From a virus: a stretch of 64,000 nucleotides of DNA. The notes under the pieces are model-generated. The model ran no database searches, had not been told where the DNA came from, and saw only the letters and a program-made list of their open reading frames with translations. Below, one piece after another: positions 1 to 46,072 of this stretch (positions are counted from its first letter, which is position 1; each line of letters starts with the position of its first letter). The position numbers and the translations under genes were made by a program. The stretch spans positions 1 through 64,000 of the IMG/VR virus record IMGVR_UViG_3300018044_000001. The stretch is one strand, 5' to 3'.

Positions 1-25
1 CTGAACTTTCTGCAAAGGAGGAGTA

Positions 26-688
26 GTGTCAACGTACTATAAGTGGCTCAATCCTGGCCGTATCACTACGTACCAATCGGTCAAGTGGCCGAAGCGGGTT
101 GGATCTTGGACGCCAGATACAAAGCCATTGCTTTGTCAATCGGGATGGCACCTCGCGACCCATCAGGGCATAGGCGAGCACGCCCGAGTCGGTGCCGTCC
201 TCTGGATTGCAGAGGGACGAGGGACGCAGGACGCTCAAGACGACAAGATCGCGTTTACCTCTGCACGGCTCGTGAGCCAGGTCGGGACACTAACGCAACC
301 CATTGCCGTCCAGTGGGCGGCTGAGTGTGCCAAGCGGGTGCTGAAGCACTACGAGGACAAGTATCCCGATGACAAGCGCCCACGCGAGGCGATCGACGCG
401 GCGATCAGGTGGGCGAAAGACCCGACGCAGGCAAATCGAGACGCCGCCTACGCCGCCGCCGACGCCGCCGCCCACGCCGCCTACGCCGCCGCCGCCGACG
501 CCGCCTACGCCGCCGCCTACGCCGCCGCCGCCGCCGCCGACGCCGCCTACGCCGCCGCCCACGCCGCCTACGCCGCCTACGCCGCCGCCGCCGCCGCCCA
601 CGCCGCCCTTTTACAAGCAAGAAACGCCGAACGTAAATGGCAGTCAGACCGTCTTTTGGCGCTGCTTGCAGCGGCGAAACAGGGATGA
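26..688 (+). CDS. phage protein with Imm5-like segment and low-complexity Ala/Tyr repeat
   Basis: AGGAGG RBS before GTG; WAAECAKRVL..DDKRPREAIDAA followed by (AAYAAA)n encoded by GCC/TAC repeats. Confidence 0.7.
   Translation: MSTYYKWLNPGRITTYQSVKWPKRVGSWTPDTKPLLCQSGWHLATHQGIGEHARVGAVLWIAEGRGTQDAQDDKIAFTSARLVSQVGTLTQPIAVQWAAECAKRVLKHYEDKYPDDKRPREAIDAAIRWAKDPTQANRDAAYAAADAAAHAAYAAAADAAYAAAYAAAAAADAAYAAAHAAYAAYAAAAAAHAALLQARNAERKWQSDRLLALLAAAKQG
440..608 (+). repeat. GCC-rich coding microsatellite (ACGCCGCC units)
   Basis: tandem gacgccgcctacgccgcc-type units in the sequence. Confidence 0.9.
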
Positions 689-980
689 CTGCCGTTGTCA
701 CAACCAAGTCAAGTGATCCCGCAACACCATCAGTCTGGCAGCGTGTGATCAAACGATTGCGGAAAGGATAGGACATGAAGTGGTCAGACGCACCTAGCGA
801 TCTACGTACAGGCGACGGGCAACCCATTTTGTGCAAGTCATACTGGTGGGATGACGCAACACGTGTGCGCACCGGTCCATGCAACAAACCAACTACACGC
901 GTTTATGGCAACGACGAGGGTGGCACCTTCTTCTGTCCTGAATGTGCGATATTCTGGGGCGACAGAGAAGGATCTACTTG

Positions 981-1406
981 ATGTCTGAAAGCAGCAACTT
1001 TCTCCCAGAACCCAAACCGCAGCCGATCATTAAGCGCGACACGGGCACGGTTGACACGCCCGCATTCGCCAGGCAGTATCTAGGTGGCAACAAAGCGTTG
1101 CTAGACGACATGTTCGGTGATGAACCAGGACAAGCGGAACGCAGGGCACGATTTGACGCAGCCATGAGACGGTCAACGGCTGACGGAAACAAGAACGCGG
1201 CAATCTTCTACGCCAAGAGACAGGCCAGAGCGTTATTGGAGGCATGCAGGTCTGGCGACAAGGCGGCGATGAATGACGCTTGGTCTACCGTCCGCGATAT
1301 GGATGGAGCGTTCAACGTGGTCTTGCAGTTAGTGGTGACGTTGGCCGAACTGACAGACGAGCATCATGACGAGCCAGAAGAACTGGACGCTTTGGAGGAA
1401 TCGTGA
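981..1406 (+). CDS. hypothetical protein (starts MSESSNFL across a GAAAG-N6-CTTTC site)
   Basis: TGATG coupling with upstream ORF; ORF track. Confidence 0.65.
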   Translation: MSESSNFLPEPKPQPIIKRDTGTVDTPAFARQYLGGNKALLDDMFGDEPGQAERRARFDAAMRRSTADGNKNAAIFYAKRQARALLEACRSGDKAAMNDAWSTVRDMDGAFNVVLQLVVTLAELTDEHHDEPEELDALEES

Positions 1407-1699
1407 ACGACGCTGAGCGCCTGGCACAGATCAAGAGCATCAACGAGGGCTACCGTACCAAGCCGTGTTGCAAGGGTGGCTACGAGTGTGTGGAGGCTAT
1501 TGACTACCTGTTGGCGCGCGTCGAGTGGCTGACTGATGAAAATGCAGGATTATGGTCAGGCGTTGTTGCCGAGGCGAACAGGCAGGCGCGGCTGATTGAA
1601 CTGTTGGAGCGTGTTGAGACCGTTGGCAACGACTGGCCCAGTTTTTTGTGCTCAGAATTGCACGCAGACATCCGTAACGAGTTAGAAGGAGAGACATGA
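1403..1699 (+). CDS. hypothetical protein
   Basis: GTGA/ATGA overlaps with both neighbours. Confidence 0.6.
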   Translation: MNDAERLAQIKSINEGYRTKPCCKGGYECVEAIDYLLARVEWLTDENAGLWSGVVAEANRQARLIELLERVETVGNDWPSFLCSELHADIRNELEGET

Positions 1700-2799
1700 A
1701 GTTTGCTGCCGAACGAGACACATTACTCAAGTCCATCGCCGCCGCAGGACGCGCAGCAGGTGGCGGCATCATGGGCGACACGCCCGCGCTACATCTCTCG
1801 CTGGTGGGTGACTGCCTGACGACGCGTGGTGCCGATCCGGACCTGACCATCAGGTCCGCGTGCGCAGTGGATGGTACCAAGGATGGCACTGTCGTAGTCC
1901 CGGCACGACTCACCATTGAGATTGTCAAGTCGTTCGGACCCGGCGCTGTTGTGCTGACGGTCGCAGACGACGTGGCTATCACATCGGGTCGTGCCGAGTT
2001 CCACGTACGTTCGCTTGACGGCGTGACATTACCCGAGCACGACGCACCAGAAGGCATGGTCGCTATTGATGCCGTGCCGTTTGTCGAGGGACTGCGGCAG
2101 GTGGTGCGTGCTGCACTCAAGGACGATTCCAGAGCACCGACGTTGACCGGCGTGCTGGCAGTACAGACAGACACAGGGTTACGCTTGGTTGCGACGGACT
2201 CGTATCGGCTGGCGGTGAAGGACATACCCGGCATTACTGCGGTGAGTGACGCGGCGGGTGTGATCCTTCCGTCACGTGCGTTGTCCGAGGTACAGCATCT
2301 GATCGGTAACGATTTGGACACTATAGCGTTCGGCAGTACGAAACTGGACGCGGTATTCGCAATAGACGGCACGACGCTGACGACGCGGCTGATCAACGGG
2401 CAGTACCCGGATTACCAGAGATTGCTGCCAGCGTCGTATCCGTACTCGTTCGTCGCTAACAGGATGGAACTACTGGAAGCGATCAAGCGTGTGCGCGTCA
2501 TCATACGTGACGCGAAGGACGCGACAACTCCTGTTCGTCTAGCGTTGACCGATGCCGGAATGATGATAGAGGTACAGATACCAGAGACAGGCAACGCGAC
2601 TGATATCGTCAACGGCAAGTTCGAGGGCGATGAAATCAACGTCGCGTTCAATCCGACGTACCTGATCGACGGGCTGGACGCGGTGGCAACGGATGACGTG
2701 GTGCTACAGGTCATCAATTCGGTCAAGCCTGCGACGCTCAAGGGCGTTGACGACGATAGCTACTTGTACCTGCTGATGCCGGTGAAGGTGTCGTCGTGA
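1696..2799 (+). CDS. dnaN: DNA polymerase III beta sliding clamp
   Basis: 367 aa; LVATDSYRLA, TRLINGQYPDYQRLLP, AFNPTYLIDGL and C-terminal YLLMPV motifs. Confidence 0.95.
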   Translation: MKFAAERDTLLKSIAAAGRAAGGGIMGDTPALHLSLVGDCLTTRGADPDLTIRSACAVDGTKDGTVVVPARLTIEIVKSFGPGAVVLTVADDVAITSGRAEFHVRSLDGVTLPEHDAPEGMVAIDAVPFVEGLRQVVRAALKDDSRAPTLTGVLAVQTDTGLRLVATDSYRLAVKDIPGITAVSDAAGVILPSRALSEVQHLIGNDLDTIAFGSTKLDAVFAIDGTTLTTRLINGQYPDYQRLLPASYPYSFVANRMELLEAIKRVRVIIRDAKDATTPVRLALTDAGMMIEVQIPETGNATDIVNGKFEGDEINVAFNPTYLIDGLDAVATDDVVLQVINSVKPATLKGVDDDSYLYLLMPVKVSS

Positions 2800-3451
2800 G
2801 AATCGTCGGCGGTCCCTTCAATGGCAAGTATGCTGATGACGAAGAGGTTGGCATGCAGTTGGACTTTCCTGGTCGCAGCAAGATAGACAGCACGTGGTAC
2901 GATGTGGATCATCTGTACGAGGTGCAAGAGGACGGGACCGCGGTGTACCAGTTCAGCCAGTTTGAGTGGAGGGAGGGGATCAAGTGATCGGCAATGCCGG
3001 ACCATTTGGTCACTGGCACTACGATGACCCGCACAATGAAATCGCCGTGCTTAAGTCTGAGGTTGACGATCTGCAGCGGAAGGTCGCGGAGCTTGAGCGG
3101 GAGAACGAGCAACTACTCGCACTGCTGGTAACCGAGTACCTTGCAGCTTTTGAGGAGTCGGACGAGCCATGACCATCCTCGCGTGGGTTTTCTGTGGTGC
3201 CATCGCCGGGGTAGTTGCATACGTCCTCTGCGAGTGGTATTATGAGCGGCACGGAAAGGAGTTGTGATGAGACTCGTCAGACGTGTTGCCGTGGCAGCCG
3301 CAGTTATAGTCGCTATACTCTATGCGATGACGTACGGGCCGAGACTGATCGCAGTCATACTCGGGTGCGCGTTCGTCGGCATTCTCGTGCTTGCCATCGT
3401 TGACAATCAGTTGCAGGGGCGGCGGCAGATGGTGAAGGGACGGTCAACGTG

Positions 3452-3622
3452 ATGGCAGGAAGTCAGCCCTTTCAACACCTAGGCGAAGTAGTGTGGGAAC
3501 TGGTCATAGCGGCTTACACCTTGGGTGCATCTTGGCGATGGCATTGGTTGGCAATCGTCGCTTGTGTTTGCATGATTCGAGCGGCATGGTTAATCCTGAT
3601 TCGAAGGGTGCGACTACCGTGA
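3452..3622 (+). CDS. small hydrophobic protein lying between two palindromic sites
   Basis: manual translation MAGSQPFQHLGEVVWELVIAAYTLGASWRWHWLAIVACVCMIRAAWLILIRRVRLP; coupled at both ends; too short for the ORF track. Confidence 0.5.
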   Translation: MAGSQPFQHLGEVVWELVIAAYTLGASWRWHWLAIVACVCMIRAAWLILIRRVRLP

Positions 3623-3924
3623 CCGAAAGCCGAAACTTTCACCATCTGTGGCACAACTGGTATTGGTACCGCACTCATGGTGCGGGCGCGGGTGAGTTCA
3701 TGTACGCCAAATGTACAGTCTGCTCTGCGGAAAAACCCGTGCGGTGGGTACGCAGTACGGACATGCATCGTGCACAGATTGCCGCTATGAACCGTTCCCG
3801 TCCGCCATCATCATCAGAACCACCAAAACGGCCCAGACCATCAAGCGTTGTGATACCACCGATTGATTTTGATACGCCTACGGGCGACCCGATGGTGATT
3901 CATCGCAGGACGTTCTACCCATGA
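3619..3924 (+). CDS. hypothetical protein (MTESRNF start; C-terminal PIDFDTPTGDP module)
   Basis: GTG start overlapping upstream stop. Confidence 0.55.
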   Translation: MTESRNFHHLWHNWYWYRTHGAGAGEFMYAKCTVCSAEKPVRWVRSTDMHRAQIAAMNRSRPPSSSEPPKRPRPSSVVIPPIDFDTPTGDPMVIHRRTFYP

Positions 3925-3946
3925 CCGAAAGCAAGCACTTTCTGCA

Positions 3947-4605
3947 ATGAAACCGTACTACCAGGATGGCCTCGTGACGCTTTATCATGGCGACAGTGCA
4001 GAGATCATCCCAACGCTGGATCGCGTAACGTTGACGATTACAGACCCGCCATATGCCAACAACACACCGTATGACACATACGATGACACGCCCGAAAATC
4101 TAGTGGCACTGATTGCGTCGGTGATCGTACCCGCAATTGCGTTAGCAAAGCGTGCGTTGATCACACCAGGGAACAGTAACGTTCATTTGTATCCTGTACC
4201 GACGTGGACCCTTGCATGGGTCGTCCCGTCCGGCGTGGGACGTAGCCCGTGGGGTTTTACGTGCTGGCAGCCCGTGCTCGCTTATGGGTCTGACCCATAC
4301 TTGGCGGCAGGACTTGGAGCGCGCCCCGACATTTTCACTGGATCGGAAGGAGCGCCGCACAACGGTCACCCGTGTCCTAAGCCCATCGAGATTTGGCAGC
4401 GGATCATTACGCGCGGTAGCGTGTCCACTGATGACGTTCTGTTTGATCCATTCGTGGGGGGGGTACAACCCTTGTGGCAGCTAAACAACTAGGCCGTCGA
4501 GCCATCGGCATCGAACTGTCTGAACGATACTGTGAGATCGCGGCAGGCCAGCTTGCACAAGGGTCGCTATTCGAGTTATCCGAAAGGAGGACCTTTCAAC
4601 AGTGA
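3947..4605 (+). pseudogene. N6A/N4C DNA methyltransferase, frameshifted at G8 tract (4456-4463)
   Basis: LYHGDS, TDPPY, HPCPKP, DPFVGG; one extra G restores [30 protein letters not shown] to TGA at 4603-4605. Confidence 0.85.
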
Positions 4606-5066
4606 ACATGGACGCGCTGGTCCGTGAGGTGTATGCTGCCAGAGATGCACGCAGGTGCGGTTGGTCACGTCACAAGACAAAGGGGAGAACCATGCAACCG
4701 AAGGTGCACCAGCGTCCTGTTGAACTACCCGATTACGCGCGGCACTGTTCACCAAGTACGCAGCCGCCCATCGTTCACGCACCGTGCGAGCGTGTACCGT
4801 TCGATCCTGATGCCGCACGTGCCCGTGCCGCGGAGTGGGCGTTGGACATCGTTGACATCCGTAGGCAGAAGGTGGTAAGGTACACCTATGACACCTGAAG
4901 AGGTTGACGAGCTGTACAGCAGGGTGCACGGGGTGCAGAATGACCTCGTGGCGTTGCTGAGCACGGAGGACCGGTACAAGGATCTGCTCATCGAGAACGC
5001 GCTGATGAACATTGGCAGGGCGATCGAACTGGCAGCGAAGTTACTGGGCGAGATGGAGGCGGAAGA

Positions 5067-5360
5067 GTGAAGACGCGGAGCATTGAGAAGACGATTGATG
5101 AGGCCGCTGACATCGCCGCTCCTGTGTTTGTCGCGCAGGACTGGCGGTACGGCGGGTGGTTCGATGAGCCAAGTCACGTGCCGACGAAGGCAGAGATTGT
5201 TGAGAAGGTGCAGCATCTCGTCAATAGCGTACAAGATCCACGGGTTGACAATACTGCAACGGGTCGGTTCGTGGTACAGAAGATACACGAAAACGAACGT
5301 GACCAGACTGACGGCATCTGTATCTTGCTGGATCTGGGCTCGTTCTATTTCTATCGGTAG
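5067..5360 (+). CDS. hypothetical protein
   Basis: ORF track; GTGA overlap. Confidence 0.55.
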   Translation: MKTRSIEKTIDEAADIAAPVFVAQDWRYGGWFDEPSHVPTKAEIVEKVQHLVNSVQDPRVDNTATGRFVVQKIHENERDQTDGICILLDLGSFYFYR

Positions 5361-5658
5361 ACGAAAGCAGACGACATGACGGTCAATGGGAAAAAAACGT
5401 TGGTCGCACAACCCGTAACGCTGGAGAGTCACGATCACACCGAGTTTGATGGCATTGTGATCGCATTCATGGCTGTCTTCCTGCTGTTGTTCGTGTTGTG
5501 CTTGGTGATGGTGGCACTGGGTGCGGTGGGATGGGGTGACGACGCCGGACTCAGACACTGTATTGCACTACACCCGCACGCTGTCACGCAGTGTCTGACG
5601 AAGGTTTACGGTCACTAACAGGTTGAAAGTCTAGGCTTTCGGCAGAAGGGCATCATTC

Positions 5659-6096
5659 ATGGACAGCGAAGAGTTGTTGGATCTCATATCACGAGAGGAC
5701 GGCATGGTCGTTTATAACCTGACAATGCCTCGTAGTGCATTTCCAGACGAGGAAACGTACCAGAAGGCACTTGCGTCACAGACGAGGGAGTATGCTGCTC
5801 CGACTGATGACATTGACATCACCGGTCTTGACAAGACGGACGTGCTAATAGCGCTCTACAGGCCCGCACGCAAAGTGGGCATGGGGTTTCTGTCTGGCGA
5901 CCTCACTGATGACGAGATTCGATCATTCGTCGCGAACTATCAGGGGGGCCGTGGTGAGTTCCCTTACATCGACTACCTCGGTGGCAAGCCGCTGAAGGTC
6001 GACCTTACGGGCGATACGTTCAACGGACGCTTGTATGACCGTGACCAGGGTGTTGGTGCAGCACGCCGTGCCGTGGATGGTTTGCGGCATCAGTGA
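5659..6096 (+). CDS. phage hypothetical protein
   Basis: IDITGLDKTDVLIALY..GMGFL..YIDYLGGKPLKVDL..RLYDRDQG pattern; flanked by two palindromic sites. Confidence 0.65.
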   Translation: MDSEELLDLISREDGMVVYNLTMPRSAFPDEETYQKALASQTREYAAPTDDIDITGLDKTDVLIALYRPARKVGMGFLSGDLTDDEIRSFVANYQGGRGEFPYIDYLGGKPLKVDLTGDTFNGRLYDRDQGVGAARRAVDGLRHQ

Positions 6097-6129
6097 TGAA
6101 AGTTACGCATTTCAACCAAGGGAGACAAC

Positions 6130-6474
6130 GTGGAATCTGATCTAGACGCAGTGATTCGGCGTGCAGACGCATGGCTAGACGGCAGCGTTGACGGACGTTA
6201 CAAGGACGAGCCACTAGGGCAGGATTGGGCGCGCGTTGCTAAGGTATGCGAGGAAGCGGGCGAGGCGATCAGTGCGCTGATCGGATACACAGGTCAAAAC
6301 CCACGCAAAGGCAATACGCACGTGCTGGACCAAGTGTTAGGTGAGCTGGCCGACGTGGTGTGTACCGGTACGCTTGCTATTCAACATTTCACCAAGAACA
6401 CAACCTGGACCGATCAAATCATCAAGGCGTCGTTCGATAAACTGCGGACTCGGATACCTGATGAGTACGTCTGA
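6130..6474 (+). CDS. MazG-like nucleotide pyrophosphohydrolase
   Basis: KVCEEAGE and ELADVV motifs, GQNPRKG. Confidence 0.85.
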   Translation: MESDLDAVIRRADAWLDGSVDGRYKDEPLGQDWARVAKVCEEAGEAISALIGYTGQNPRKGNTHVLDQVLGELADVVCTGTLAIQHFTKNTTWTDQIIKASFDKLRTRIPDEYV

Positions 6475-6492
6475 AAGCTTCGGCTTTCTACC

Positions 6493-7749
6493 GTGACAGC
6501 CGATCTCATCATCGCCGACGTGTTCGACGGCATCGCCTCGCTCCCCGACAACTCGGTGGACCTGGTGATGACCTCGCCGCCCTTCCTCGCTCTCCGCTCG
6601 TACCTACCAGCGGATCATCCCGACAAGGCGAAGGAGATCGGCTCCGAGGCCACGCCCGCGGACTTCCTCGACACCCTGCTCGACGTGGTGGAGGCCATCA
6701 CCCCGAAGCTCACGCGCACGGCGAGCGTCTGTTCCGAGTTGGGGGACACCTACTCAGGGAGCGGTGGCGCGGGCGGGGACTACGGCGAGGACGGGCTGCG
6801 TGAAGGCGCCCCGAAGTTCAACGGGTCGGCTCGCGCTGCCAAGAAGAACCCGCGCCGAGACAAGGGCGAGGACATCGCGCTCGGCATCGTTGGCACGACA
6901 AGTGGCGACAGAGCGAAGTCGAACCCCGACGCGTGGCCCCTCGACAAGTCCCTGTGTGGCATCCCCACCCTGTTCGCGTGGTCCCTCGCCTACGGCCGTA
7001 ACCTGCTCCGTCCCGAGCGCCTGACGCCTCACTGGCGCATCCGCAACGTCATCGTGTGGGCGCGGCCGAACCCGCCCGTGGGTGCGTTAGGGGACAAGTT
7101 CCGTCCCGCCACGAGCTACCTGACTGTCGCGTGCAAGGCGCGGGACCGGTGGTTCGACCAAGATGCCGTGCGAGTGCCTGCCGCTCGCGAAGGCTGGACC
7201 ACGATTGACCCGCGGATGCGCGGCGATGTGCCATTTGGTGAACCACACAGCACGGTACGTGTCGAAATTCCATCGTCGGCCCCCCTCCTTGACTACTGGG
7301 AGATACCGACGCAGCCCTACCGGGGCGCACACTACGCCACGTGGCCAGAACGTCTCGTCGTGCCTGTCGTATTGTCCATGTGCCCCGAGCGTGTGTGCCG
7401 GACGTGTGGGGAACCAAGCAATCGGATTGTGAACAATCCAAATGCAAACAGCGGCTACGACGAGGTGACCGACAAGGCAACAAGGCACGCTGCCTACGTT
7501 GAGACAGTGCACAATACCATTGGCTGGACTGACTGCGACTGCTCCGATGATCGCAACCCGTCCATGGGCCTGCTCGGCAAGTGGCGCCCCGGAGTAGTCC
7601 TCGATCCCTTCTGCGGCTCAGGAACGACCTTGCAGGTGGCGACGCGACTCGGGAGAGACGCTGTGGGCATTGACATTGACCCGCGGAACGAGAAGCTGAT
7701 TTGTGATAGGGTAGGGCTGTTCATGGGAGACGTGAGGAAGGTCGGATGA
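6493..7749 (+). CDS. N4C/N6A DNA methyltransferase (beta class)
   Basis: TSPPF catalytic motif, HYATWPERL, VLDPFCGSGTT SAM-binding motif. Confidence 0.9.
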   Translation: MTADLIIADVFDGIASLPDNSVDLVMTSPPFLALRSYLPADHPDKAKEIGSEATPADFLDTLLDVVEAITPKLTRTASVCSELGDTYSGSGGAGGDYGEDGLREGAPKFNGSARAAKKNPRRDKGEDIALGIVGTTSGDRAKSNPDAWPLDKSLCGIPTLFAWSLAYGRNLLRPERLTPHWRIRNVIVWARPNPPVGALGDKFRPATSYLTVACKARDRWFDQDAVRVPAAREGWTTIDPRMRGDVPFGEPHSTVRVEIPSSAPLLDYWEIPTQPYRGAHYATWPERLVVPVVLSMCPERVCRTCGEPSNRIVNNPNANSGYDEVTDKATRHAAYVETVHNTIGWTDCDCSDDRNPSMGLLGKWRPGVVLDPFCGSGTTLQVATRLGRDAVGIDIDPRNEKLICDRVGLFMGDVRKVG

Positions 7750-7773
7750 TGCAGAAAGTGTTGGCTTTCAACT

Positions 7774-8127
7774 ATGGGTAATCTGCGAGCAAAAGCCGAA
7801 GCGGCTCAGGCGGCGTGGGACACTTACGACTACGATGTTGAATGCGCTAAGGACCGCGCGAGGTACGACGATATGGTGAACAGGAGCGGTGACGCTGACG
7901 ATTCTGACTTTTCGCCGTGGTTTCCGCCTATACGAAAGTCAGGTCCGTCACTCACCTGTCTGTCGCCTCATCGTATCCTAGAACTATTGGACCTGATTGA
8001 TGGCTTGGCTGGACTGGTTCAGCGATCGATACCGATGGCGGGACCAGCCACCGAGTATGAAGCGTGGGATCGTTGGCACAAGGATCGCGAGGCACTGATT
8101 TTCAAGATGAGCGAGATGGAGTTGTGA
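7774..8127 (+). CDS. hypothetical protein
   Basis: ORF bounded by sites at 7754 and 8126. Confidence 0.55.
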   Translation: MGNLRAKAEAAQAAWDTYDYDVECAKDRARYDDMVNRSGDADDSDFSPWFPPIRKSGPSLTCLSPHRILELLDLIDGLAGLVQRSIPMAGPATEYEAWDRWHKDREALIFKMSEMEL

Positions 8128-8462
8128 AAGTGCCCACTTTCAGACGGAAGAAAAGGCCAACCGGTAAGTATCCGAAGCGACCATCTAAGTATCCGAAGCG
8201 ACCATCTAGTTACACGACGCCATGTAGCGAGTTCCTGACTGGACGCAATGGGCACGTAAGCGTGGCGTGCCTAGAGGGATGGCGGGCCTTGTTCGACTAC
8301 ATTGAAAGCAAGCAAGACATGATCGACGTTCGGAACGGACTAACCGCGATTTTAGAGGACGACGACGACCGCAGCGGCACGAAGGTGCATCTGTCCCCGA
8401 TAGACTTCGACACACCTACGGGCGACCCAGTGGTGATCCATCGGAGGGCATTTTACCCATGA
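8124..8462 (+). CDS. hypothetical protein with 21-bp tandem duplication and PIDFDTPTGDP C-terminus
   Basis: taagtatccgaagcgaccatc x2 at 8165-8206; coupled start and stop. Confidence 0.5.
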   Translation: MKVPTFRRKKRPTGKYPKRPSKYPKRPSSYTTPCSEFLTGRNGHVSVACLEGWRALFDYIESKQDMIDVRNGLTAILEDDDDRSGTKVHLSPIDFDTPTGDPVVIHRRAFYP

Positions 8463-8833
8463 CCGAAGGCGCTGACTTTCTACCGGAGGACGATGAACTC
8501 CTATCACGACTGAAGGCTGCGCTGGCGGAGCCTTGCGTTGCTGTGCGACTAGTTCACACCGCGCATGGTGGCTGTGCTGACTTTGATGTGTTGGACCTGT
8601 TGCGCCTCGTCGGGCGACTTGAGGAACTTGAAGCTCGCTGGCGGGGTGCTAAAGAGTTCTTTCAGAAGGAATGCACTCGCCTAGATTTAGAGATTCTGCG
8701 CGGTGAGATGTTCCGTCACTGGGTTGCGGACAACACGCCTATGCCTGGTGAAACATGGAATGGCGATGTGATCGACACCCTGCACCTGATTCACCAGCGT
8801 GCTGTCATCGGAACCGACGAGGCTCCGCTATGA
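8459..8833 (+). CDS. hypothetical protein (MTEGADFL start)
   Basis: ATGA overlaps at both ends. Confidence 0.6.
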   Translation: MTEGADFLPEDDELLSRLKAALAEPCVAVRLVHTAHGGCADFDVLDLLRLVGRLEELEARWRGAKEFFQKECTRLDLEILRGEMFRHWVADNTPMPGETWNGDVIDTLHLIHQRAVIGTDEAPL

Positions 8834-9252
8834 CCGAAAGTTCCTCCTTTCCGCATGCAATTAGTTTAACTGAATTGCTTGCAGACTTCGTTCCATCCCA
8901 CCCTCAACCCTGGACGTGGGATGATGAAGAACACGACATTCTTGGTCGTACGTGCATTTGTTGCGGCGAGGTTGGCCACTACATGTCGCAACTTGAATCT
9001 TATCTCCTAAAGCGCGGACTTACCGAAGGCGTCTGTCTTGATTTTAACGAGCATCGTGTCCGCGACGGTCATCACAGGATCGTTGCTGCACGACGATTAG
9101 GCATTGATCGCGTTCCTTGGGAGTCACCAGAGCAAGCAACAGAGCGATGGATTCGTGACGAGGGACACGTTGATTGGCATGACCGTCAACATGGTGATCG
9201 CTCAGCGTGGGAACACGAGTGGCGCAAACGGTGGCGGTCACCTAGTGTCTGA
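8830..9252 (+). CDS. ParB/Srx-like nuclease domain protein
   Basis: VRDGHHRIVAARRLGIDRVP motif. Confidence 0.7.
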   Translation: MTESSSFPHAISLTELLADFVPSHPQPWTWDDEEHDILGRTCICCGEVGHYMSQLESYLLKRGLTEGVCLDFNEHRVRDGHHRIVAARRLGIDRVPWESPEQATERWIRDEGHVDWHDRQHGDRSAWEHEWRKRWRSPSV

Positions 9253-9437
9253 AAGCTCCTGCTTTCAACATCCCGTGCGGTTATGCTGTATGCAGCGTCA
9301 TCTTGGTCCTATTTGCCCCGACGGCAAGGTAATGTGTCAGTTGTGCTACGATAGGTTTGATATGGCCGATCTGTACGTTGACGAGCACGGTGACCGATGG
9401 GATGTCTGTCGGGCATGTCAAGAGAATGACGCGCTCC

Positions 9438-10277
9438 ATGGGTGACAATAGCAAGATCGAATGGACTGACGCGACGTGGAACCCCGTCGTTGGCTGCAAA
9501 GCGGTCAGCCCTGGCTGCGACCACTGCTACGCGGCACGCTATGCATCGCGCAACCTGAGCGACACCTACCGCGGACTAGCAGAGGATGGCGTTTTCAACG
9601 GGACCGTGCGGTGCTTGCCTGAGCGCCTAGACCAGCCGTTGCGGTGGAAACGACCACGGCGTATCTTCGTGAACTCGATGAGCGACCTGTTCCATCCTGA
9701 CGTACCCTACGACTTTATCTGTCGCGTGTTTGCCGTGATGGGCGAGACGGAGGATCGGCACACGTATCAGATTCTCACCAAGCGGCCGCATCGGATGCGG
9801 TCAACGTTAATCCGTCCGTACTTGAGTTTCGAGGATCATCAAACCAACGTCATTGTTGACCTGCCGCTGTCCAACGTCTGGCTCGGCACGAGCATCGAAA
9901 GTGACGAGTACACGTTTCGCGCGAACCACCTGCGAGCTACACCCGCAGCTGTCCGCTTCCTGAGCCTCGAACCCCTGCTCGGGCCGCTACCGTCGCTTGA
10001 CCTGACCGGCATTGACTGGGTGATCGTTGGTGGCGAATCAGGACCGGGCGCGCGACCGATGCACGGTGCGTGGGTGCGAGACATCCGCGATCGGTGCATA
10101 GATGCCAAGATTCCCTTCTTGTTCAAACAGTGGGGCGAGTGGGCACCCGATCTGGCGTTTGACGCCTTCACTGGTGCCTACCTGGGAGAGTTTGACGATG
10201 AATCAATGACCCGCATCGGCAAGAAGGCGGCTGGCCGCGATCTTGATGGTCGGACCTGGGATGAGTACCCGACATGA
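9438..10277 (+). CDS. DUF5131 (phage Gp37/Gp68) family protein
   Basis: [50 protein letters not shown]. Confidence 0.93.
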
Positions 10278-10645
10278 GAATCCTCGTTTGCGGTGGCCGT
10301 GATTATGCAGATGAGGATGTCGTTGCTCGTGTCCTGACCGATGCCTTCACCTTCTGGATACGTTCGTCCGACGAGCCGTTCGTGATAGTCCACGGTGATG
10401 CCCGTGGTGCCGACCGTTTGGCAGGTGCATGGGCAGATGCGTATCCCGACATTCTTGTCAACGAGCCGCACCCTGCTGATTGGACACGCTACGGCAGACG
10501 TGCCGGACCGATCCGTAATCAAGAGATGTTGGACAGTGGCATTGATCTCGTGATCGCCTTCCCTGGTGGTCGTGGCACTGCTGACATGGTGCATCGTGCT
10601 CGCAAGGCTGGCGTGAAGGTGAAAGAGGTCGTCACCAAGTTGTAA
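10274..10645 (+). CDS. SLOG/YspA-like (DUF2493) protein
   Basis: [39 protein letters not shown]. Confidence 0.9.
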
Positions 10646-10666
10646 CACGGAATCTCGTCCACCTAG

Positions 10667-10694
10667 TTGACATCGGACGTGGAAGGTGTACGCT
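10667..10694 (+). promoter_or_regulatory. sigma70-type promoter, probably leaderless transcript
   Basis: TTGACA-16 bp-TACGCT with ATG 7 nt downstream at 10701. Confidence 0.55.
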
Positions 10695-10858
10695 GAAGGC
10701 ATGACAACAACACAGATGACCAACGGCGAATTGTTCATGGCACTGGCGGACGCCAAGTTCCGCAAGGACGCCGAACAGATCGCTACGCTTTCGGCAGAGT
10801 TCGATGAGCGGCAACCAGTGATGGTCCTGCTGCCTGACGGCATGTTCGGGTTTGAGTC

Positions 10859-11230
10859 ATGAGACAACGTGAAATCACCATCGGCAACGCGTACGAAGCT
10901 AGGGTCAGCGGCAAGGTGACCACCGTGCGCATCCTGCGGAAGGCGCACAGAAAGGGTTGGATCGCCAAGAATGAGGCGACTGGACGCGAGGTGCAGATAC
11001 TGACGGCACAGCGGTTGCGGCCATTGCCAGCGGAGCGACCCTCCGCTAGCAAGCGAGTTCAGGTTTACTACCAGCCAGTGACGAACGACGATCCGCGTCC
11101 GTGCCTGTATCTCGGTCCAGCTGAAGGATATAGCGAGGTTGACGGTCAGGTCATGATCCGTGACCAGTACGGCGAGTTTCGTACCAGCATCAACTACCTC
11201 TACCTGGGAGCGACATGCAATGGATTTTGA
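10859..11230 (+). CDS. hypothetical protein
   Basis: ORF track; ATGA coupling. Confidence 0.6.
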   Translation: MRQREITIGNAYEARVSGKVTTVRILRKAHRKGWIAKNEATGREVQILTAQRLRPLPAERPSASKRVQVYYQPVTNDDPRPCLYLGPAEGYSEVDGQVMIRDQYGEFRTSINYLYLGATCNGF

Positions 11231-11759
11231 AGCCGAACTAGACGCATTCTACGTGGCCAACTACAACGAAACCGACCGCGAGTATTGGGGTGTCTCGGAT
11301 CGCTGGGCAGAGGACAACGGCGATGAAGACTAGACCCCTGATGGTGTGCGGTCACGCAGCCAACGCAGTGAACGGCAACGGCGATCCGTCGTGTGCCATC
11401 TGTTGTACTAGCGAGATCGACGACCGCATGTTGTCTCGTGAGGGCAGGATGGCGAAGTGCTCGTACTCGCACATGCGAGACGGCACGGTGCATCCCGACT
11501 CGTTGCGACCGTCGTCTGATCCCGGACTGGCGTTCTTTGAGTACCGGGGACCGGGGTCAGCCTACGCTATGGGCACGTGCAAGCACTGCCACTACAACAT
11601 CGTCGCACACGACCCCACGGTGCCACATATGGCACGCATAGAAGGTGGGGGCAGGACGAGGTACGAGAACTTCATGAGGCAACACGGACAACACGAGTTC
11701 GAACCGATCGGTCCGGCAGAGTACGATCTGTACTACTGCGGCTGTTGGGGGTGGAACTG

Positions 11760-12119
11760 ATGACCGACATCAATCGCTACGTGAAGTGGGTCGACAGGAT
11801 CGGCTTTGTCGAGGACGAGGACAGAATCGACCAGTCGTTAGTCGTGGCATGGGTGTACCAACCGAACGACGACCCAGAGCCGCCACACGTGTGGACGACT
11901 TGGTTTCACTCGCGTGCTGGCAGTAACCTCATTGGTCCGTACATTGACGAGCTTGAGTTTCTGGACGAGAACGAGAGTGCTGTCAAGGCTCGGGTCTATG
12001 ACCAGATCGAACGGTACGGCGGCTACATGGATCACGAGTGGGAGCACAGTAACAGCGTGCTGGCGTTTGAGCAGGATGCATGGCTGGAAGGTGCGTACGA
12101 GGAGAGGTACGATGTCTGA
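11760..12119 (+). CDS. hypothetical protein
   Basis: TGATG coupling; acidic C-terminus. Confidence 0.55.
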   Translation: MTDINRYVKWVDRIGFVEDEDRIDQSLVVAWVYQPNDDPEPPHVWTTWFHSRAGSNLIGPYIDELEFLDENESAVKARVYDQIERYGGYMDHEWEHSNSVLAFEQDAWLEGAYEERYDV

Positions 12120-12241
12120 AAATTTTCGCTGCCCCGCATGCGGTAGTCAAGATTGTCGGTCGCGTGGCTATGACGAAGGATCACATGAACATTTAGTCGA
12201 GTGTCAAGCGTGTGGTCAGATGGGCGATCGGAGTGATTTTC

Positions 12242-12658
12242 GTGTCTGAAAGGATCAACTTTCAACACCCGTCACGCTACGGCGTTGGCGATGTGGTGTA
12301 CGGGCTGAGTATCAGCCCACACAAATATTGGCAGTTGTGTCATGTGTGCCACGGGACAAGCCGCGTGTACGTTGCTGGTCATCCTGAACTACATACTTAC
12401 TGTCCATTCAAAGGCTGCTCAGGCGGCAAAGTCTGGCTTGAGGACATGGGTTCATACTACGAGATCCGAGAACTCACGATTGGCCAGGTGCGCGTTGTGG
12501 TTGGCTACGGCGCTCAAGTGACATACATGTGCGAAGAGACGGGCGTCGGTAGCGGACAGGTGTGGCACGAGGAAAAATTGTATCCGTCGTACACGGAGGC
12601 AGAGGCGTCTGCTCGTGAACAGGGTGCTGTACTGCGAGAGGAGTTGTTGGTCCCATGA
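12242..12658 (+). CDS. CxxCxG zinc-finger protein, paralog of the 19482-20075 C-terminus
   Basis: CHVCHGT..CPFKGCSGGKV..YMCEETGVGSGQVW. Confidence 0.7.
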   Translation: MSERINFQHPSRYGVGDVVYGLSISPHKYWQLCHVCHGTSRVYVAGHPELHTYCPFKGCSGGKVWLEDMGSYYEIRELTIGQVRVVVGYGAQVTYMCEETGVGSGQVWHEEKLYPSYTEAEASAREQGAVLREELLVP

Positions 12659-12859
12659 CCGACTTTCTACCGACCACACCGAGACTGCGACTGAAGTATC
12701 GGTTTCGGTTGCCATATAAGCACACTCGCGCTGATTATGCGGGCCACTCTGGCAAGGCTCACCACAACAAGCTTAATCAGGCAGCAAAAGATCGACTACC
12801 ACCACAGCCACTCAAGGCAATGGTCTATTCCAATCGCAAGTATCGGATGGTGACGATCC

Positions 12860-13264
12860 ATGACTGAAAATCCAGACTTTCCACAACCCGAGCGATGTCG
12901 ACGCTGTAGCAAGTTAGGCATGCGCTGGCGTGCCGCCACGCACATTAGCAAGCAATGGGGTCCGCTCTGTCGCGAGTGCTACGCGTACAGCAAAACGCTT
13001 GCTGGCGCGTCAGAATACCTGCGGGTTGCCTTGGACGATTTCTGGATGGCGGTTAAAACGCAGCGGTGGGAACCGACCGGCACGCGTGTGTGGCAGTGGT
13101 TGGCCGTGTACTCACCTGCGTGGTGGGACGATGCATGGTATCATCTATTTGATTGGTGGGACCGAACCGTTTACGGGGAAGAGTTTTTACAGCGCATCTG
13201 TAGGCGTTGCGGCGAAAAACGCTACAACCACCAACACGGACGATTTGGAGAATGCAATGTCTGA
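12860..13264 (+). CDS. hypothetical Cys-rich protein (MTENPDF start)
   Basis: ORF between sites 12866 and 13263. Confidence 0.55.
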   Translation: MTENPDFPQPERCRRCSKLGMRWRAATHISKQWGPLCRECYAYSKTLAGASEYLRVALDDFWMAVKTQRWEPTGTRVWQWLAVYSPAWWDDAWYHLFDWWDRTVYGEEFLQRICRRCGEKRYNHQHGRFGECNV

Positions 13265-13648
13265 AAGCACGAGCTTTCTGCAACACGGCGAGGGAGATGG
13301 CACGATGGCCGATGCTGAATGGCGTGAGGTGGCCCAGATCTTAGATAAAGAACTGACCAAGGCGCTCGACATGCTAGAGGTAGAGCATCCATCACACCTT
13401 CCTTCGGCCTTTTGCGGGGTGTGCAATTTTCTACATAAGTCGGGAAGATAGACCGATGAAACCCGTCATACGATACGCTGTCTACAACGATGACACAAAG
13501 GCTGACGAACTTGTTTTAGAGGACGCGTTGACTCCTGACTCGTTTACTAACCTCAAGCAAGCGCGACGGGAGGCAGCTCAGCATTATCGAGATCACGGAG
13601 TTAAATGTCGAGTTTTCAAGTGTGTCGTGTCGATGGAGGTGACCCCAC

Positions 13649-13903
13649 TTGACTGAAAGGCTGAACTTTCTCGCTCGTGTTCTTGAGTGGGTGATCAAGA
13701 ACGACAACAGTAAAGCTACTGCAATCGTCTCGGTTACGACAGATGCCGAGGACTGGGCGGGCAGCACCGAGGGCGGGTTTTATAGCACGTTCGGTGTTGA
13801 GATTACCTATCTCGTGGGCGACGTTCAACGTCGTACGTCAGCTCGCGGCTATGACATGGAGTCGTTGTGGCACTGGGTTGTAGGGGGTGCGTACGGTGAG
13901 TAA
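13649..13903 (+). CDS. hypothetical protein (MTERLNF start)
   Basis: GGAGG RBS; coupled. Confidence 0.55.
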   Translation: MTERLNFLARVLEWVIKNDNSKATAIVSVTTDAEDWAGSTEGGFYSTFGVEITYLVGDVQRRTSARGYDMESLWHWVVGGAYGE

Positions 13904-14511
13904 CACGCTTTATTGGCGGCCACTAAATCCGCCCCCGCCAGATCATGCGCTAGATCAACTCAAATATGTCATCAGTCAGTCGTTGTGGGGACACGACGGA
14001 TCACTACGCGGTGACCCGCTTCCGCTTGATAGATCGTTCATTGCGTATTTGCGGGGCATTGCTGACGCAGGTAGTGCTACCGTGAAAGAAGAGGCCGAAG
14101 AGTTGATTGATGCGATCCGACAATACGGCGTCGTGGAGGTGTATCTGTGTGGTTGAAAGCCCAAACTTTCTGCGGCGTCGGTTCCACAGGCATCGTTGGG
14201 TTGGACCTCGTTGGCATGTTGCGCCAGGATCGGTAATCCCGATTTACGAATACTGGCAAACGTGTGAACGTTGTGGTTTACACCGAGAGCAGATCAACAG
14301 GATGGGTCCGTTCATCAGCGATCGAGACCGGTGGGTGGAATGGTAGAAAGGCTCGACTTTCAACAAACGCCAGAGGTCATCGCCGTTGGTATCGTGTCCA
14401 GCGAAGACTTCATGTGGCTCATGTGCGGCGGTGATGATCAGTGGATTGGTTCACATCTGCGCGCACTCAAGCCAGCGTGGGACGCGTACGTGGCTGCAGG
14501 AGGTAAGACAT

Positions 14512-14848: not shown

Positions 14849-14855
14849 ACTAATC

Positions 14856-34854: not shown

Positions 34855-35370
34855 CTAGGTGTTCAACGTCTCGCATGCAGTCGTATGCAACACGCCTTGG
34901 TAGATCGTGACACCGCCATCAAGCGTGCGCGGGATGGTGTAATCGAACCTGATGTCAGGTCCGCCCAACTCCGTACCCTCGCCCCATTGGAAGATGTCCG
35001 ACCACGGTATGTTCGGCACACGGTTGGCCTCGATGAACGTCGTCAACGCGTCGCAGAAGTGATCGAACTCAATCTGTCCGTCCTCTGTCTGCGGCAGGTC
35101 CGACTTGAACACGACCAGCATGCCGGTGTCGTAAGTACGGAACTTGCGGCCGCTGTGCTCGCCACCGAGTGCGATACGTCTCTCCACTTGCGATGTCACA
35201 AAGAGGTAGATGCACGCACCCAGACCGAGGTTGGGATACGAGTTGCTAAACAGCTGACTCTCGTCGCTAACCTTCGGGAGCGCTCGATACACGACACCCA
35301 AGTTGGGAATGTTCGAGTTGTCCGGCTGCATGTACTCGTAAATGCCCTTGGTGACACTTGACTTGCTCAC
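34855..35370 (-). CDS. putative tail terminator / head-tail protein
   Basis: synteny upstream of tail tube; size. Confidence 0.6.
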   Translation of the reverse strand: MSKSSVTKGIYEYMQPDNSNIPNLGVVYRALPKVSDESQLFSNSYPNLGLGACIYLFVTSQVERRIALGGEHSGRKFRTYDTGMLVVFKSDLPQTEDGQIEFDHFCDALTTFIEANRVPNIPWSDIFQWGEGTELGGPDIRFDYTIPRTLDGGVTIYQGVLHTTACETLNT

Positions 35371-36212
35371 TGTGTGCCCCCAATGTGTAGACCAAAGACA
35401 ACACCAGCCGCTTGTGACTGGTCAGCCGCGGCATAGATGGCGGTCGTTTGCGGACTGCTGTGTCCCATCAGTTCTTGCGTCAGTCGCAGATCGCGGCAGG
35501 CTTGGTATGTCGCTGATGCAAAGTAGTGACGTAGCGTGTGCGCGGTACTGGCAATATGTATCGAATGCAGATACGTATTGATGGTTCGTGACACGCTGGC
35601 AGGTGTCTCATCCCAGAGTCGTCCACTTGACGGCATTGGCAAAGCCTGTAGTGCAGCGAACACGTCGGGGTGCAACGGCACCCATCTCTCTTTCTCGCCT
35701 TTGCCGTGAATAATGTGCAGGCGGGGAGGGTTGGCGGTGTCATCCAAATCGTCACGCTCTATCAGAGCGATTTCCTGACAGCGGCATCCCGACAGCGCAC
35801 CCAGTAACAACCAGCACCGCATGATCGGAGTGGCGTTAGCGAGTGCGCGTTGCAACTCTGCGATTGGCATCGGACGCGGGTGGCGTGCGTGTAGTCGTGG
35901 CTTGACAATGCCGAACGTAGGTGGCTTATTCTCTGGTTCACCTTCGCGCCATGCAGGGAACTTCAGGTGTCCGTTGTTGATCGCCCAGTTGAAGAATACG
36001 GTCAACGTTGATAGCCATGACGAGCGTGTCTTGTTGCTCATGGGCCTAGATAGCCACTGTTGCGTTGCTTCACGAGTGGCTGTAGCGAAGCCAACCTCTC
36101 TTTGGTACTTGCGGAGCCACCGGTCGCGGACGGCTAACGTGCCTGGGAGGCAGCCGCACATACGTTCGTACTCGGTATAGGCCGCGAGAAGTTCCAGGTC
36201 TGTCATTGTCAC
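35367..36212 (-). CDS. XerC/D-like tyrosine recombinase
   Basis: GCRCQEI (R), HGKGEKER (K), HTLRH, LMGHSSPQTTAIY (H, Y); no arm-binding domain. Confidence 0.93.
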   Translation of the reverse strand: MTMTDLELLAAYTEYERMCGCLPGTLAVRDRWLRKYQREVGFATATREATQQWLSRPMSNKTRSSWLSTLTVFFNWAINNGHLKFPAWREGEPENKPPTFGIVKPRLHARHPRPMPIAELQRALANATPIMRCWLLLGALSGCRCQEIALIERDDLDDTANPPRLHIIHGKGEKERWVPLHPDVFAALQALPMPSSGRLWDETPASVSRTINTYLHSIHIASTAHTLRHYFASATYQACRDLRLTQELMGHSSPQTTAIYAAADQSQAAGVVFGLHIGGTQ

Positions 36213-44936: not shown

Positions 44937-44949
44937 TAGATCGGCTCCT

Positions 44950-45267
44950 CTAGTTTGGGTTGTGTGCTGCTACGTGCGCGGTTGGCGCGTAAATGGTACA
45001 ATCGCTAGACCCGTCACCATGGTCGGTATTCACCGACATGATCGGTCCGGCATCCTCGTCGCCAATGTAATCTTCTCTGTAGTTGATGCGATGGCGCGCA
45101 TCGGGTATATCGTCAGGATGTGCCACCTGTACCATTGGGACGGTCATGCCAGACATGCCAGGACACGGGTGCAGGCGCGCGTGAGGTCGTGTCTCTAGTG
45201 TCTGGTCGCGGACAAGACAGGATGGACAGGCCCAGTAGGTTGTGATGGGTTGCAACTCGACAATCAT
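44950..45267 (-). CDS. hypothetical protein
   Basis: WACPSC..HPCPGM..REDYIG..DCTIYAP. Confidence 0.65.
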   Translation of the reverse strand: MIVELQPITTYWACPSCLVRDQTLETRPHARLHPCPGMSGMTVPMVQVAHPDDIPDARHRINYREDYIGDEDAGPIMSVNTDHGDGSSDCTIYAPTAHVAAHNPN

Positions 45268-45274
45268 GCTTTCT

Positions 45275-45898
45275 TTATTCTCCCCACATATGTCTCCTGC
45301 GCATAAAGACCTCACGGTCGTGCGCCCCTGCGGCATTGCCCATCACATAAATGGGATCACTTGGTGCTTTGCCCGCACCAGGATGCAAATGTTCTACAAC
45401 TGCCTCTTTAGCGAACGCCCATCGATTGCGATACTGTGCAACATGTCTAAGCTCGTCGTCACAATACTGATGAGAAAATTCCTCACATAGCACAACGCCG
45501 GGTGTTCCGTCGCCAGTGCCGCCACATTCGTTGATGTAATACCGGCTGACCAGGAAGTGGACGCCAGCCATGTTGTGCAGGTCGTTGATGCCTACCACGC
45601 CGTTGACTTCGTTCATCTTGATCATGGCCGACTCGAACCAACCTGCTCTGAAGGACAGGTCGTCGGCACCGAGGAACACGTACGGTTCCGTGCACGCGTG
45701 AAATGCCTTGTTGATCCTGACGGGGTACGTGCCGCCATCGTCTTCGATCAGCGTGACGGGTAGCGACCGTGCTGCGTCTGCGCACTCACCAGTGGCAACG
45801 ACCACGATGCTGTAGCTCTGCGTGCTGTCCACGATGCTCTGCACGACAAGTGCGATGCGGTGCGGACGCATGAGCGGGATGAGGATCGCTACGCTCAC
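45275..45898 (-). CDS. GT2-like glycosyltransferase
   Basis: VAILIP, FLGADDL (DxD-like), YCDDEL, VEHLHP. Confidence 0.8.
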   Translation of the reverse strand: MSVAILIPLMRPHRIALVVQSIVDSTQSYSIVVVATGECADAARSLPVTLIEDDGGTYPVRINKAFHACTEPYVFLGADDLSFRAGWFESAMIKMNEVNGVVGINDLHNMAGVHFLVSRYYINECGGTGDGTPGVVLCEEFSHQYCDDELRHVAQYRNRWAFAKEAVVEHLHPGAGKAPSDPIYVMGNAAGAHDREVFMRRRHMWGE

Positions 45899-45927
45899 TT
45901 GACAACCTCCGCGTGGGCGACTACACT
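45899..45927 (+). promoter_or_regulatory. sigma70-type promoter antisense to the late operon
   Basis: TTGACA-17 bp-TACACT. Confidence 0.7.
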
Positions 45928-46072
45928 ACGTGATGTCAACATGGCATCACCAGATGGGAGATGCGGCAAGCGGTGACGCCCCGAGTCCGTTGGATCAAAC
46001 CGTTAGGGCGACGGCCAGCGGTTGGGTACATCTCCCATTTGTTGAAAGCCATAACTTTCGGAAGGGACTGAC

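Follow-up and report, generated by a model that had tools for sequence, protein, structure and literature searches.

A 16-bp palindrome at gene junctions in the two early accessory-gene arms of a peat phage genome

Phage genomes are mosaic, and how their genes are swapped so cleanly at the borders is still debated. The question is raised in concrete form by the virus record IMGVR_UViG_3300018044_000001 (88,572 bases, hereafter G000), in which the palindrome GAAAG-N6-CTTTC recurs at gene junctions. We analysed positions 1–64,000 of this record ("the window", that is the whole stretch; coordinates above 64,000 are record positions). An initial annotation, made from the sequence of the window, had proposed that the genes between the palindromes are exchangeable cassettes, possibly mobilised by an Xer-like tyrosine recombinase encoded in the same genome. 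We find that the palindrome is a 16-bp lineage-specific junction element of two early accessory-gene arms, strongly selected and present at about half of their junctions. It may well be read on DNA by a dimeric protein within operons, while modules are exchanged through the short homology that its recurrent arms and flanks provide, and this is the explanation that we tentatively favour.

Distribution and anatomy of the palindrome

The window holds 20 perfect copies where 0.04 are expected (maximum of one in 100 shuffles), and 24 copies with at most one mismatch where 1.01 are expected, which reproduces the counts and coordinates of the initial annotation. Twenty-two of these copies lie at 987–21208 (18 perfect and four with one mismatch) and single ones at 26052 and 46044. 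The whole record contains 27 perfect copies, and the seven beyond the window (80827, 81484, 82065, 82289, 83133, 88124 and 88444) belong to the same two early arms, across the record ends. The first 123 bases of the record equal the last 123 (window 1–123, record 88450–88572), so the assembly is, judged by its ends, circular or circularly permuted, with a unique length of 88,449 bases. A half site that had been listed separately at nt 6–10 is present, but it is no separate object, being the right half of copy 88444 seen again through this terminal repeat. Transcription diverges from about 87.3 kb. The rightward arm, running from there across the record end to about 21.2 kb, carries 20 perfect and four one-mismatch copies, and the leftward arm carries five copies, all around three methyltransferase genes. 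The arms thus hold 25 of the 27 perfect copies, at junctions, and the other two (26052 and 46044) lie in gaps outside them.

Spacing is fixed: a scan of the record found 27 copies with a spacer of 6 nt and none with any spacer of 0–5 or 7–14 nt. That the spacer differs in each complete copy, as noted earlier for the window, holds for all 27 copies of the record, the closest pair being one substitution apart (Hamming distance 1) whichever orientation is compared, and neighbouring spacers are no more similar than other pairs (P = 0.17). In the extended consensus, a start codon and three further bases precede the left arm; the spacer has a pyrimidine at its left end, a purine at its right end and four free bases between them; and a weaker 4-base flank follows the right arm. 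Its invariant part is limited to the five bases of each arm, with a pyrimidine/purine (Y/R) preference at the sixth, and the arms never vary in the 27 perfect copies of G000 and nine of its relative G001. The half-sites are 5 bases long and stand 11 bp apart, centre to centre. The conserved bases left of the left arm are the start codon and have no mirror counterpart on the right side.

Twenty-two of the 27 perfect sites begin 1–12 nt after the stop of an open reading frame (ORF) of at least 50 codons (stop at −12 to −1), compared with 6.3% of random arm positions, and the upstream stop is often a TGA made of a T and the first two arm bases. The earlier statement that every copy sits on a stop/start junction is nearly correct, with exceptions in 4582, 20299, 46044, 81484 and 82065, the last two of which lie inside the 3′ end of the upstream gene. 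The element is no more than about 35 nt away from the next start. A start codon is placed at −6 in 15 of the 21 plus-strand perfect copies and in three of the four one-mismatch copies. In four of the 15 (3927, 20074, 21193 and 88444) it opens an ORF of fewer than 40 codons and the real start lies downstream. Eight copies have the start at +19/+20, four have it at +29 to +34, preceded by a ribosome-binding sequence, and a single copy has it at −2. Five of the eight head the five DNA methyltransferase genes (N6_N4, MT-A70 and PHROG methyltransferase families), each of which is bracketed by two palindromes and starts 20 nt after the upstream one. The 11 N-terminal peptides listed by the initial annotation are translated as it stated, and its claim that the left side of the site gives a start codon and first codons to unrelated ORFs is borne out, as the proteins downstream have only the eight site-coded residues in common. 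Unrelated proteins owe a common start codon and common first residues to the element.

Conservation of sites and replacement of genes

The motif-bearing relatives of G000 are two overlapping IMG/VR fragments, G001 (19.6 kb; nine perfect copies and one with one mismatch) and G002 (four copies), which are 99.9% identical over their aligned part. G001 is a mosaic of G000, with blocks of 67–94% identity, a changed order and many genes unique to each. The best matches of eight of the ten G001 spacers are 0–1 nt off a G000 spacer, in the same order along both genomes, and four are identical. A random spacer falls within 1 nt of some G000 spacer with a probability of 0.32, and therefore it is the order and the four exact matches that carry weight. 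When the flanks of nine G000/G001 site pairs were compared (80 nt each side), no homology was detectable on either side in seven, and on one side only in two; the proteins after the paired sites again have nothing in common beyond the site-coded residues. At site 7754 homology to G001 stops 1–2 nt beyond the right arm. A 484-bp segment that the window has in excess of G001 has at either border a start codon with the three bases after it and the first two bases of the arm, and the gene at 26–688 is attached to a site with different spacers in G000 and G001. In the region of greatest plasticity, the element is found at about half of the gene borders; its place and order are kept, and its spacer nearly so, while the genes change, which makes it a concrete and testable case of a "linker" for module exchange. 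The idea that the sites are joints between exchangeable genes is thus partly supported by these alignments: order and spacers are kept while genes are replaced in G001, but breakpoints also fall at gene starts without a site.

Variation within the population was assessed with near-identical contigs (not raw reads) of four other peat runs, compared with 900–20899. For minus-strand contig pieces the side of the unmatched remainder is not stated, and piece ends were counted, not breakpoints; among the pieces listed (32 pieces, 64 ends, a minority of the total), eight ends lie within 6 nt of a site where 1.9 are expected (P = 0.0006). A contig of run X2 matches 6469–7158 (2 differences) and 7279–7770 (17 differences), from site to site around a methyltransferase gene, and is unlike G000 thereafter. 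Contigs of runs X3 and X4 join 11762 to 12247, without the 484-bp segment, and a contig of X4 begins to match only at the right arm of 12248, so that the same gene follows a different spacer. Relic half-sites were found at 5363, 11760 and 12655. Further traces of exchange or duplication touch the sites within G000 itself. The gene at 88118–88438 lies between two copies that, compared by reading over about 28 nt of arms and flanks, are distinguished by one spacer base only; two otherwise unrelated ORFs have a common 27-residue tail that runs into a site; and an internal duplication (12266–12654 and 19677–20065, 389 bp, 80% identical) begins 2 nt after site 12248.

The duplication covers the whole of a 138-aa gene and the C-terminal two thirds of a 197-aa gene, and is rich in paired Cys and His. 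In the 418-aa methyltransferase, 7158–7279 is unmatched in the X2 and X3 contigs and matched on both sides; strains seem to exchange this variable inner stretch, which may be the part that recognises the target. The small gene at 18892–19098 has a homologue at another place in G002 (L074, reverse strand, about 430–640), inside the sole segment in which G001 and G002 differ, and looks like a mobile single-gene module without palindromes. The DUF5131 gene (9450–10150) has a very high summed contig depth with many joints from other peat organisms, and that part of the contig tables is therefore uninformative on the phage.

The initial annotation had proposed a scan of the whole genome and its relatives for the motif. 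Pattern scans of IMG/VR and protein-seeded scans (clamp, 0 loci; phosphoesterase-like gene, 4; PLD-like gene, 10; DnaB, 2; recombinase, 10) found it in G000, G001 and G002 only; it is present 27 times in the record but absent from the more distant relatives scanned, in which de novo palindrome scans detected neither this motif nor another multi-copy palindrome. A metagenome scan returned 22 loci and added L036 and L037, whose copies (3694 and 8509 in L036, 3146 in L037) were rejected because they belong to a duplication of about 45 nt in which spacer and flanks are identical. L036 is a distant metagenome relative in which the motif lies within this different kind of repeat. A two-site pattern search of genome contigs gave 101 stretches, and those with at least four copies were tandem repeats. 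A literature search for the motif itself returned nothing relevant.

Proposed recognition of the element and rival explanations

What is conserved in the element appears to be its sequence and not just its pairing. Positions +5 and +10 exhibit a mirror-symmetric Y/R preference without pairing, with C opposite A in about 10 of 27 copies by our own tally of the alignment. No two-mismatch compensating variant was found at any G000 or G001 junction, nor any compensatory change in 36 perfect copies. Folding of the hairpin in its real flanks gave a mean stem probability of 0.62 versus 0.55 in shuffled flanks (higher at 16 of 26 sites, P = 0.33), and no Rfam family falls on a site. Together these results argue for two independent mirror-image half-sites one helical turn apart, an arrangement that fits recognition of duplex DNA by a symmetric dimer and not a structure-only RNA element.

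Under the explanation that we favour, the element would be recognised on double-stranded DNA by a symmetric dimeric protein, encoded by the phage or by its host. The candidate protein would probably act not at promoters but within the early operons, where it would block or modulate read-through at the places where modules adjoin. The recurrence of the same 10–20 bases at about half of the junctions would also offer short homology for module swaps between co-infecting relatives, and the fixed start-codon register would be inherited through such exchanges and not be needed for function. Swapping of this kind would resemble that of the promoter/stem-loop cassettes of T4-type phages.

A number of observations weigh against recognition of the element on DNA and against its part in exchange. 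A transcription factor would be expected at promoters, and no copy with two or fewer mismatches lies in the divergent early promoter region 87151–87450. By reading of the sequence, copy 46044 lies downstream of a promoter-like hexamer pair, not on the hexamers, and immediately precedes a ribosome-binding site. Among 67 G000 proteins searched with Pfam and 20 with PHROGs no repressor-type or helix-turn-helix family was found; the DNA-related matches in these scans included WhiB, an Lsr2-like domain, the recombinase, methyltransferases, nucleases and the DnaB helicase. All five one-mismatch variants (four in G000 and one in G001) keep a G-U pair or touch the innermost pair only, as a hairpin would tolerate. 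Almost all copies lie, by estimate, within the stretch covered by an initiating ribosome, which suits an RNA-level role equally. With regard to exchange, the difference between G001 and G002 is a single replaced segment; one end of it lies immediately behind a start codon and the other a little way into the following gene, neither with a palindrome, and the same type of break directly after a start codon without a site is seen at 18899 and in G001. The comparison of relatives' breakpoints that the initial annotation had suggested did place ends of homology at the sites, but an enrichment over site-less junctions could not be shown between G000 and G001 because nearly every arm junction is a breakpoint between them.

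In the search for a binding protein, the 124-aa protein encoded after site 46044 gave nothing usable in the ESM Atlas. Promoter-like matches in 1–20000 number 15 (9.1 expected) and terminator-like ones 7 (14.3 expected), none of them on a site by comparison of coordinates, and no RNA run is listed among the sequencing runs with the stretch. Of the dimeric repressor operator that the initial annotation named as an alternative, the symmetric dimer is tentatively favoured; no repressor-like protein was found in these scans and no copy at the early promoters.

Several of these points would suit an RNA-level element, which we consider possible but rather unlikely. The palindrome would in that case be a transcribed hairpin with a 5-bp stem and a 6-nt loop by the ribosome-binding region, acting as a translational-repressor or processing operator or enforcing translational coupling. 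Sites lie 3 nt after the start (15 perfect and three one-mismatch copies), 4 nt before it (eight copies) or directly before a ribosome-binding sequence. Copy 46044 is placed in a leader beside a ribosome-binding site, the early promoters have none, and the five one-mismatch variants keep a wobble pair or lose the loop-closing pair alone. For the start-associated sequences of Cluster K mycobacteriophages a translational role is also suspected by their authors (PMC3203893). The predicted stems are weak (−3.0 to −7.8 kcal/mol) and gain no folding advantage from their context, the register of the start is variable overall (−6, −2, +19/+20, +29 to +44), and a hairpin would account neither for the lack of compensatory change nor for a symmetric preference at unpaired positions. 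The stem sequence is fixed and the loop is free, and an invariant stem with a free loop is the reverse of what is usual in RNA–protein recognition.

The element has partial counterparts in other phages. Like the Cluster K start-associated sequences (SAS/ESAS), whose function is unknown to their authors, it is a lineage-specific short repeat in the non-structural part of the genome, at the starts of unrelated families and often with the upstream stop inside; the Cluster K sequences are asymmetric, in one orientation, 3–7 bp upstream of the start, and contain the ribosome-binding core (PMC3203893). The repeat of G000, in contrast, is perfectly palindromic and usually begins 3 nt after the start, and the ribosome-binding core (GGAGG) is present in copy 4582 only. 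The 17-bp dyad repeats of Cluster O also number more than 30, have inverted arms that do not vary around a centre that does, include hardly any one-mismatch copies, are mostly off promoters, and are predicted by their authors to bind a dimeric DNA-binding protein, their function being unknown; they differ in their 7-bp arms and 3-bp centre, are genome-wide with about one third inside genes, have no link to starts, and few if any lie at indels or rearrangements (PMC4351075). In G000, 5-bp arms surround 6 bp, almost all copies are at early-arm junctions, and breakpoints coincide with them. The sites described here are symmetric and absent from the early promoters, and the protein scans revealed no repressor, whereas stoperators have an asymmetric sequence whose orientation follows transcription, with one copy acting as operator of the early promoter. 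In common with the stoperators of Cluster A, as the same report describes them, two to three dozen copies lie inside operons, in short intergenic gaps and off promoters (PMC4351075). The PeSL cassettes of T4-type phages share with our element that short repeats flank non-essential genes in hyperplastic regions and that recombination shuffles the modules, but consist of a promoter and a terminator stem-loop (PMC2839356). Here, none of the listed promoter-like or terminator-like patterns falls on a site, and coding sequence extends into the element; modules are likewise exchanged with breakpoints at the repeats, and site-less breakpoints exist too. By this comparison the element combines the start-linkage of Cluster K, the invariant dyad of Cluster O and the shuffling role of PeSL, and it agrees with the full definition of none. 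With the Cluster K SAS and the Cluster O palindromes, it brings to three the unexplained kinds of multi-copy junction repeat in actinobacteriophages, and the identity of its binder could explain all three.

A different explanation is offered by site-specific recombination. Simple tyrosine-recombinase core sites (Xer/dif, pdif modules, heterospecific lox and FRT variants, the Brujita integrase) have inverted arms around a 6-bp centre, and differing centres are incompatible. The sites of G000 are alike in their inverted arms and 6-bp centre, all 27 copies falling within the 6–8 bp of a recombinase core, and the genome encodes a simple, arm-less recombinase. A refined form of the cassette model, in which the 27 sites are recombination sites of this enzyme and each recombines only with the matching site of a co-infecting relative, is nevertheless improbable in our judgement. 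It would account for spacers that are all distinct in G000 and identical or 1 nt off at the matching places of G001, and for the gene at 88118–88438 between two copies with spacers 1 nt apart. The closest solved structure to the recombinase is the entry named Gp33 (5vfz, E = 6e-16), which we take to be the Brujita integrase and which presumably uses a 6-base overlap. In the literature the Brujita integrase is grouped with the simple, Xer-related recombinases (PMC8138268). In addition, a recombinase 89% identical is encoded, in the same tail-operon context, on a contig from the same sample as G001.

The relatives of the recombinase speak otherwise. A 61% identical homologue, also in the tail-operon context, comes from a record with a provirus classification; sites are absent from this record, even from the position equivalent to 46044, which suggests that the enzyme is an ordinary integrase. 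The complete 101.8-kb relative G010, with matches to 36 of 149 G000 proteins, encodes a 55% homologue; the motif is absent from that genome, and none of its palindromes occurs more than three times. Recombinase homologues were found at 10 loci, and the motif in none of the five records scanned. The gene lies in the tail operon in G000, L088 and L090 and among early genes in G010; by its location, the recombinase gene itself has moved. Homologues thus occur without the array, and therefore the recombinase has a role independent of it, which would most simply be integration. Inverted repeats around the recombinase gene revealed nothing telling.

The sites themselves also fit this explanation poorly. 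The recombinase-binding arms of tyrosine-recombinase core sites are about 11–13 bp long, a length that is not reached here with 5 invariant bases, or 5–6 conserved bp, per arm. Any symmetric dimer would suit half-sites of five bases whose centres stand 11 bp apart, and so the earlier argument from recombinase-site geometry is not specific. Different spacers would block strand exchange between tyrosine-recombinase sites; no two of the 27 spacers are identical within G000, and four of ten G001 spacers are identical to the matching G000 spacer. The same gene is joined to different spacers (gene 26–688 in G000 and G001, and the X4 contig at 12248), site-less starts carry breakpoints as well, and the relics are cut asymmetrically. 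Strand exchange at the sites is hypothetical. Mobilisation by the Xer-like recombinase at 35367–36206, as initially proposed, is therefore not upheld, given its homologues in relatives without the array, spacers that all differ, 5–6 invariant bp per arm and breakpoints without sites. We would hold it very unlikely that the array is a natural system of recombinase-mediated cassette exchange, with 27 mutually incompatible lox-like sites, a Cre-like arm-less recombinase and crossover only with the matching site of a co-infecting relative. If true, single genes, including the five methyltransferases, and the whole tail module between 26052 and 46044 would be swappable in frame with the genome unscrambled.

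Finally, the element could lack any function and be a start-codon junction module spread and kept uniform by repeated recombination and hitch-hiking with incoming genes, for which we see little probability. The fixed register and the hybrid sites do look inherited: an ATG stands at −6 even where the real start is elsewhere (3927, 20074, 88444), and at 82065 it is on the non-coding strand. The lineage range is narrow, being confined to G000, G001 and G002 among all loci fetched. However, with 27 perfect copies and four one-mismatch copies, purifying selection must be strong or homogenisation very frequent. Contigs of three other peat runs have a perfect site in place of the mutated copy 3458 (3459 G>A in X3, X4 and X6), and copies in non-coding gaps (5625, 26052 and 46044) are as perfect as those in coding sequence.

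Feature coordinates and genome setting

Table 1 Palindrome copies in the window, relics, and genes discussed in relation to them (start positions relative to the first base of the site; coordinates above 64,000 are record positions).
Feature	Position	Strand	Remarks
Right part of site 88444 (spacer end and right arm)	1–10	.	Present through the terminal repeat
Perfect site	987–1002	+	ATG at −6 (981), 141-aa ORF
One-mismatch site, left arm A>G	3458–3473	+	ATG at −6
Perfect site	3625–3640	+	GTG at −6, 101-aa ORF; upstream stop −5
Perfect site	3927–3942	+	ATG at −6 of ORF <40 codons (about 9, by reading); real start +20 (3947, DNA methyltransferase)
DNA methyltransferase gene	3947–4492
Perfect site	4582–4597	+	110-nt gap; GTG start +20 (4602); GGAGG ribosome-binding core in spacer
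Relic, left arm and spacer, no right arm	5363–5373	+	Place matches G001 site 3209
Perfect site, intergenic	5625–5640	+	Stop −9, start +34
One-mismatch site (right arm), intergenic	6098–6113	+	X2 contig match ends at 6113
Perfect site	6473–6488	+	TGA at −1; GTG +20 of 418-aa methyltransferase; spacer identical to G001 site 3467
DNA methyltransferase gene	6493–7749
Perfect site	7754–7769	+	Methyltransferase stop −7; next start +20; G001 homology ends at +17
Perfect site	8126–8141	+	Upstream TGA −1; GTG at −2, 112-aa ORF
One-mismatch site, left arm A>G	8465–8480	+	ATG at −6; pairs with G001 site 6794
Perfect site	8836–8851	+	ATG at −6, 140-aa ORF
Perfect site	9251–9266	+	GTG at −6; upstream TGA −1
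Start codon, 3 nt and first two left-arm bases, then unrelated sequence	11760–11767	+	Left edge of 484-bp segment
Perfect site	12248–12263	+	GTG at −6; right edge of 484-bp indel, left edge of internal duplication
Relic, site with 9-nt internal deletion	12655–12671	+	At start of next gene
One-mismatch site, innermost left-arm base	12866–12881	+	ATG at −6
Perfect site	13263–13278	+	ATG at −6; upstream TGA −1
Perfect site	13655–13670	+	TTG at −6; upstream TGA −1
Perfect site	14155–14170	+	GTG at −6; spacer identical to G001 site 9498; both flanks unrelated
Perfect site	14346–14361	+	ATG at −6
Perfect site	20074–20089	+	ATG at −6 of ORF <40 codons; long ORF from +44; spacer identical to G001 site 15155, flanks unrelated
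Perfect site	20299–20314	+	ATG at −6, 94-aa ORF
Perfect site, end of rightward arm	21193–21208	+	Adjoins convergent PLD-like gene; pairs with G001 site 16639
Perfect site, intergenic gap of leftward late operon	26052–26067	−	On coding strand: stop −12, start +34
Arm-less tyrosine recombinase (Phage_integrase family)	35367–36206	−	Candidate enzyme of the initial annotation; no link to sites found
Perfect site, untranslated leader	46044–46059	+	29 nt before GTG of rightward three-gene insert ending in Lsr2-like gene
DNA methyltransferase gene	80850–81479
DNA methyltransferase gene	81476–82060
DNA methyltransferase gene	82303–83124

By its gene content G000 is a novel, uncultivated siphovirus from peat, of about 88.4 kb, with an actinobacterial host, the host being assigned because WhiB and an Lsr2-like domain are encoded. 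The sequencing runs holding the stretch are peat and pond metagenomes. A megablast of 1–22000 against a phage collection gave no match, and a tblastn search with the portal fusion gave, for the portal part, nothing better than matches of less than 30% identity. It encodes a tape-measure protein, a sliding-clamp homologue and the RNA-binding family named Ro60 by the initial annotation, as well as a portal fusion, a 1555-aa protein (55423–60090) in which PHROG matches place Nudix-like, RNA-ligase-like and MuF-like parts next to the portal.

The accessory arm encodes the Ro60-called RNA-binding family (15191–16813), an RNase H-fold protein on the opposite strand (17990–18757) and a cyclic-phosphate receiver domain (20760–21194), which together would give this arm an RNA-repair flavour. 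On the minus strand, Rfam identified three group I introns at 47811–50339 and 18 tRNA genes at 60676–63692.

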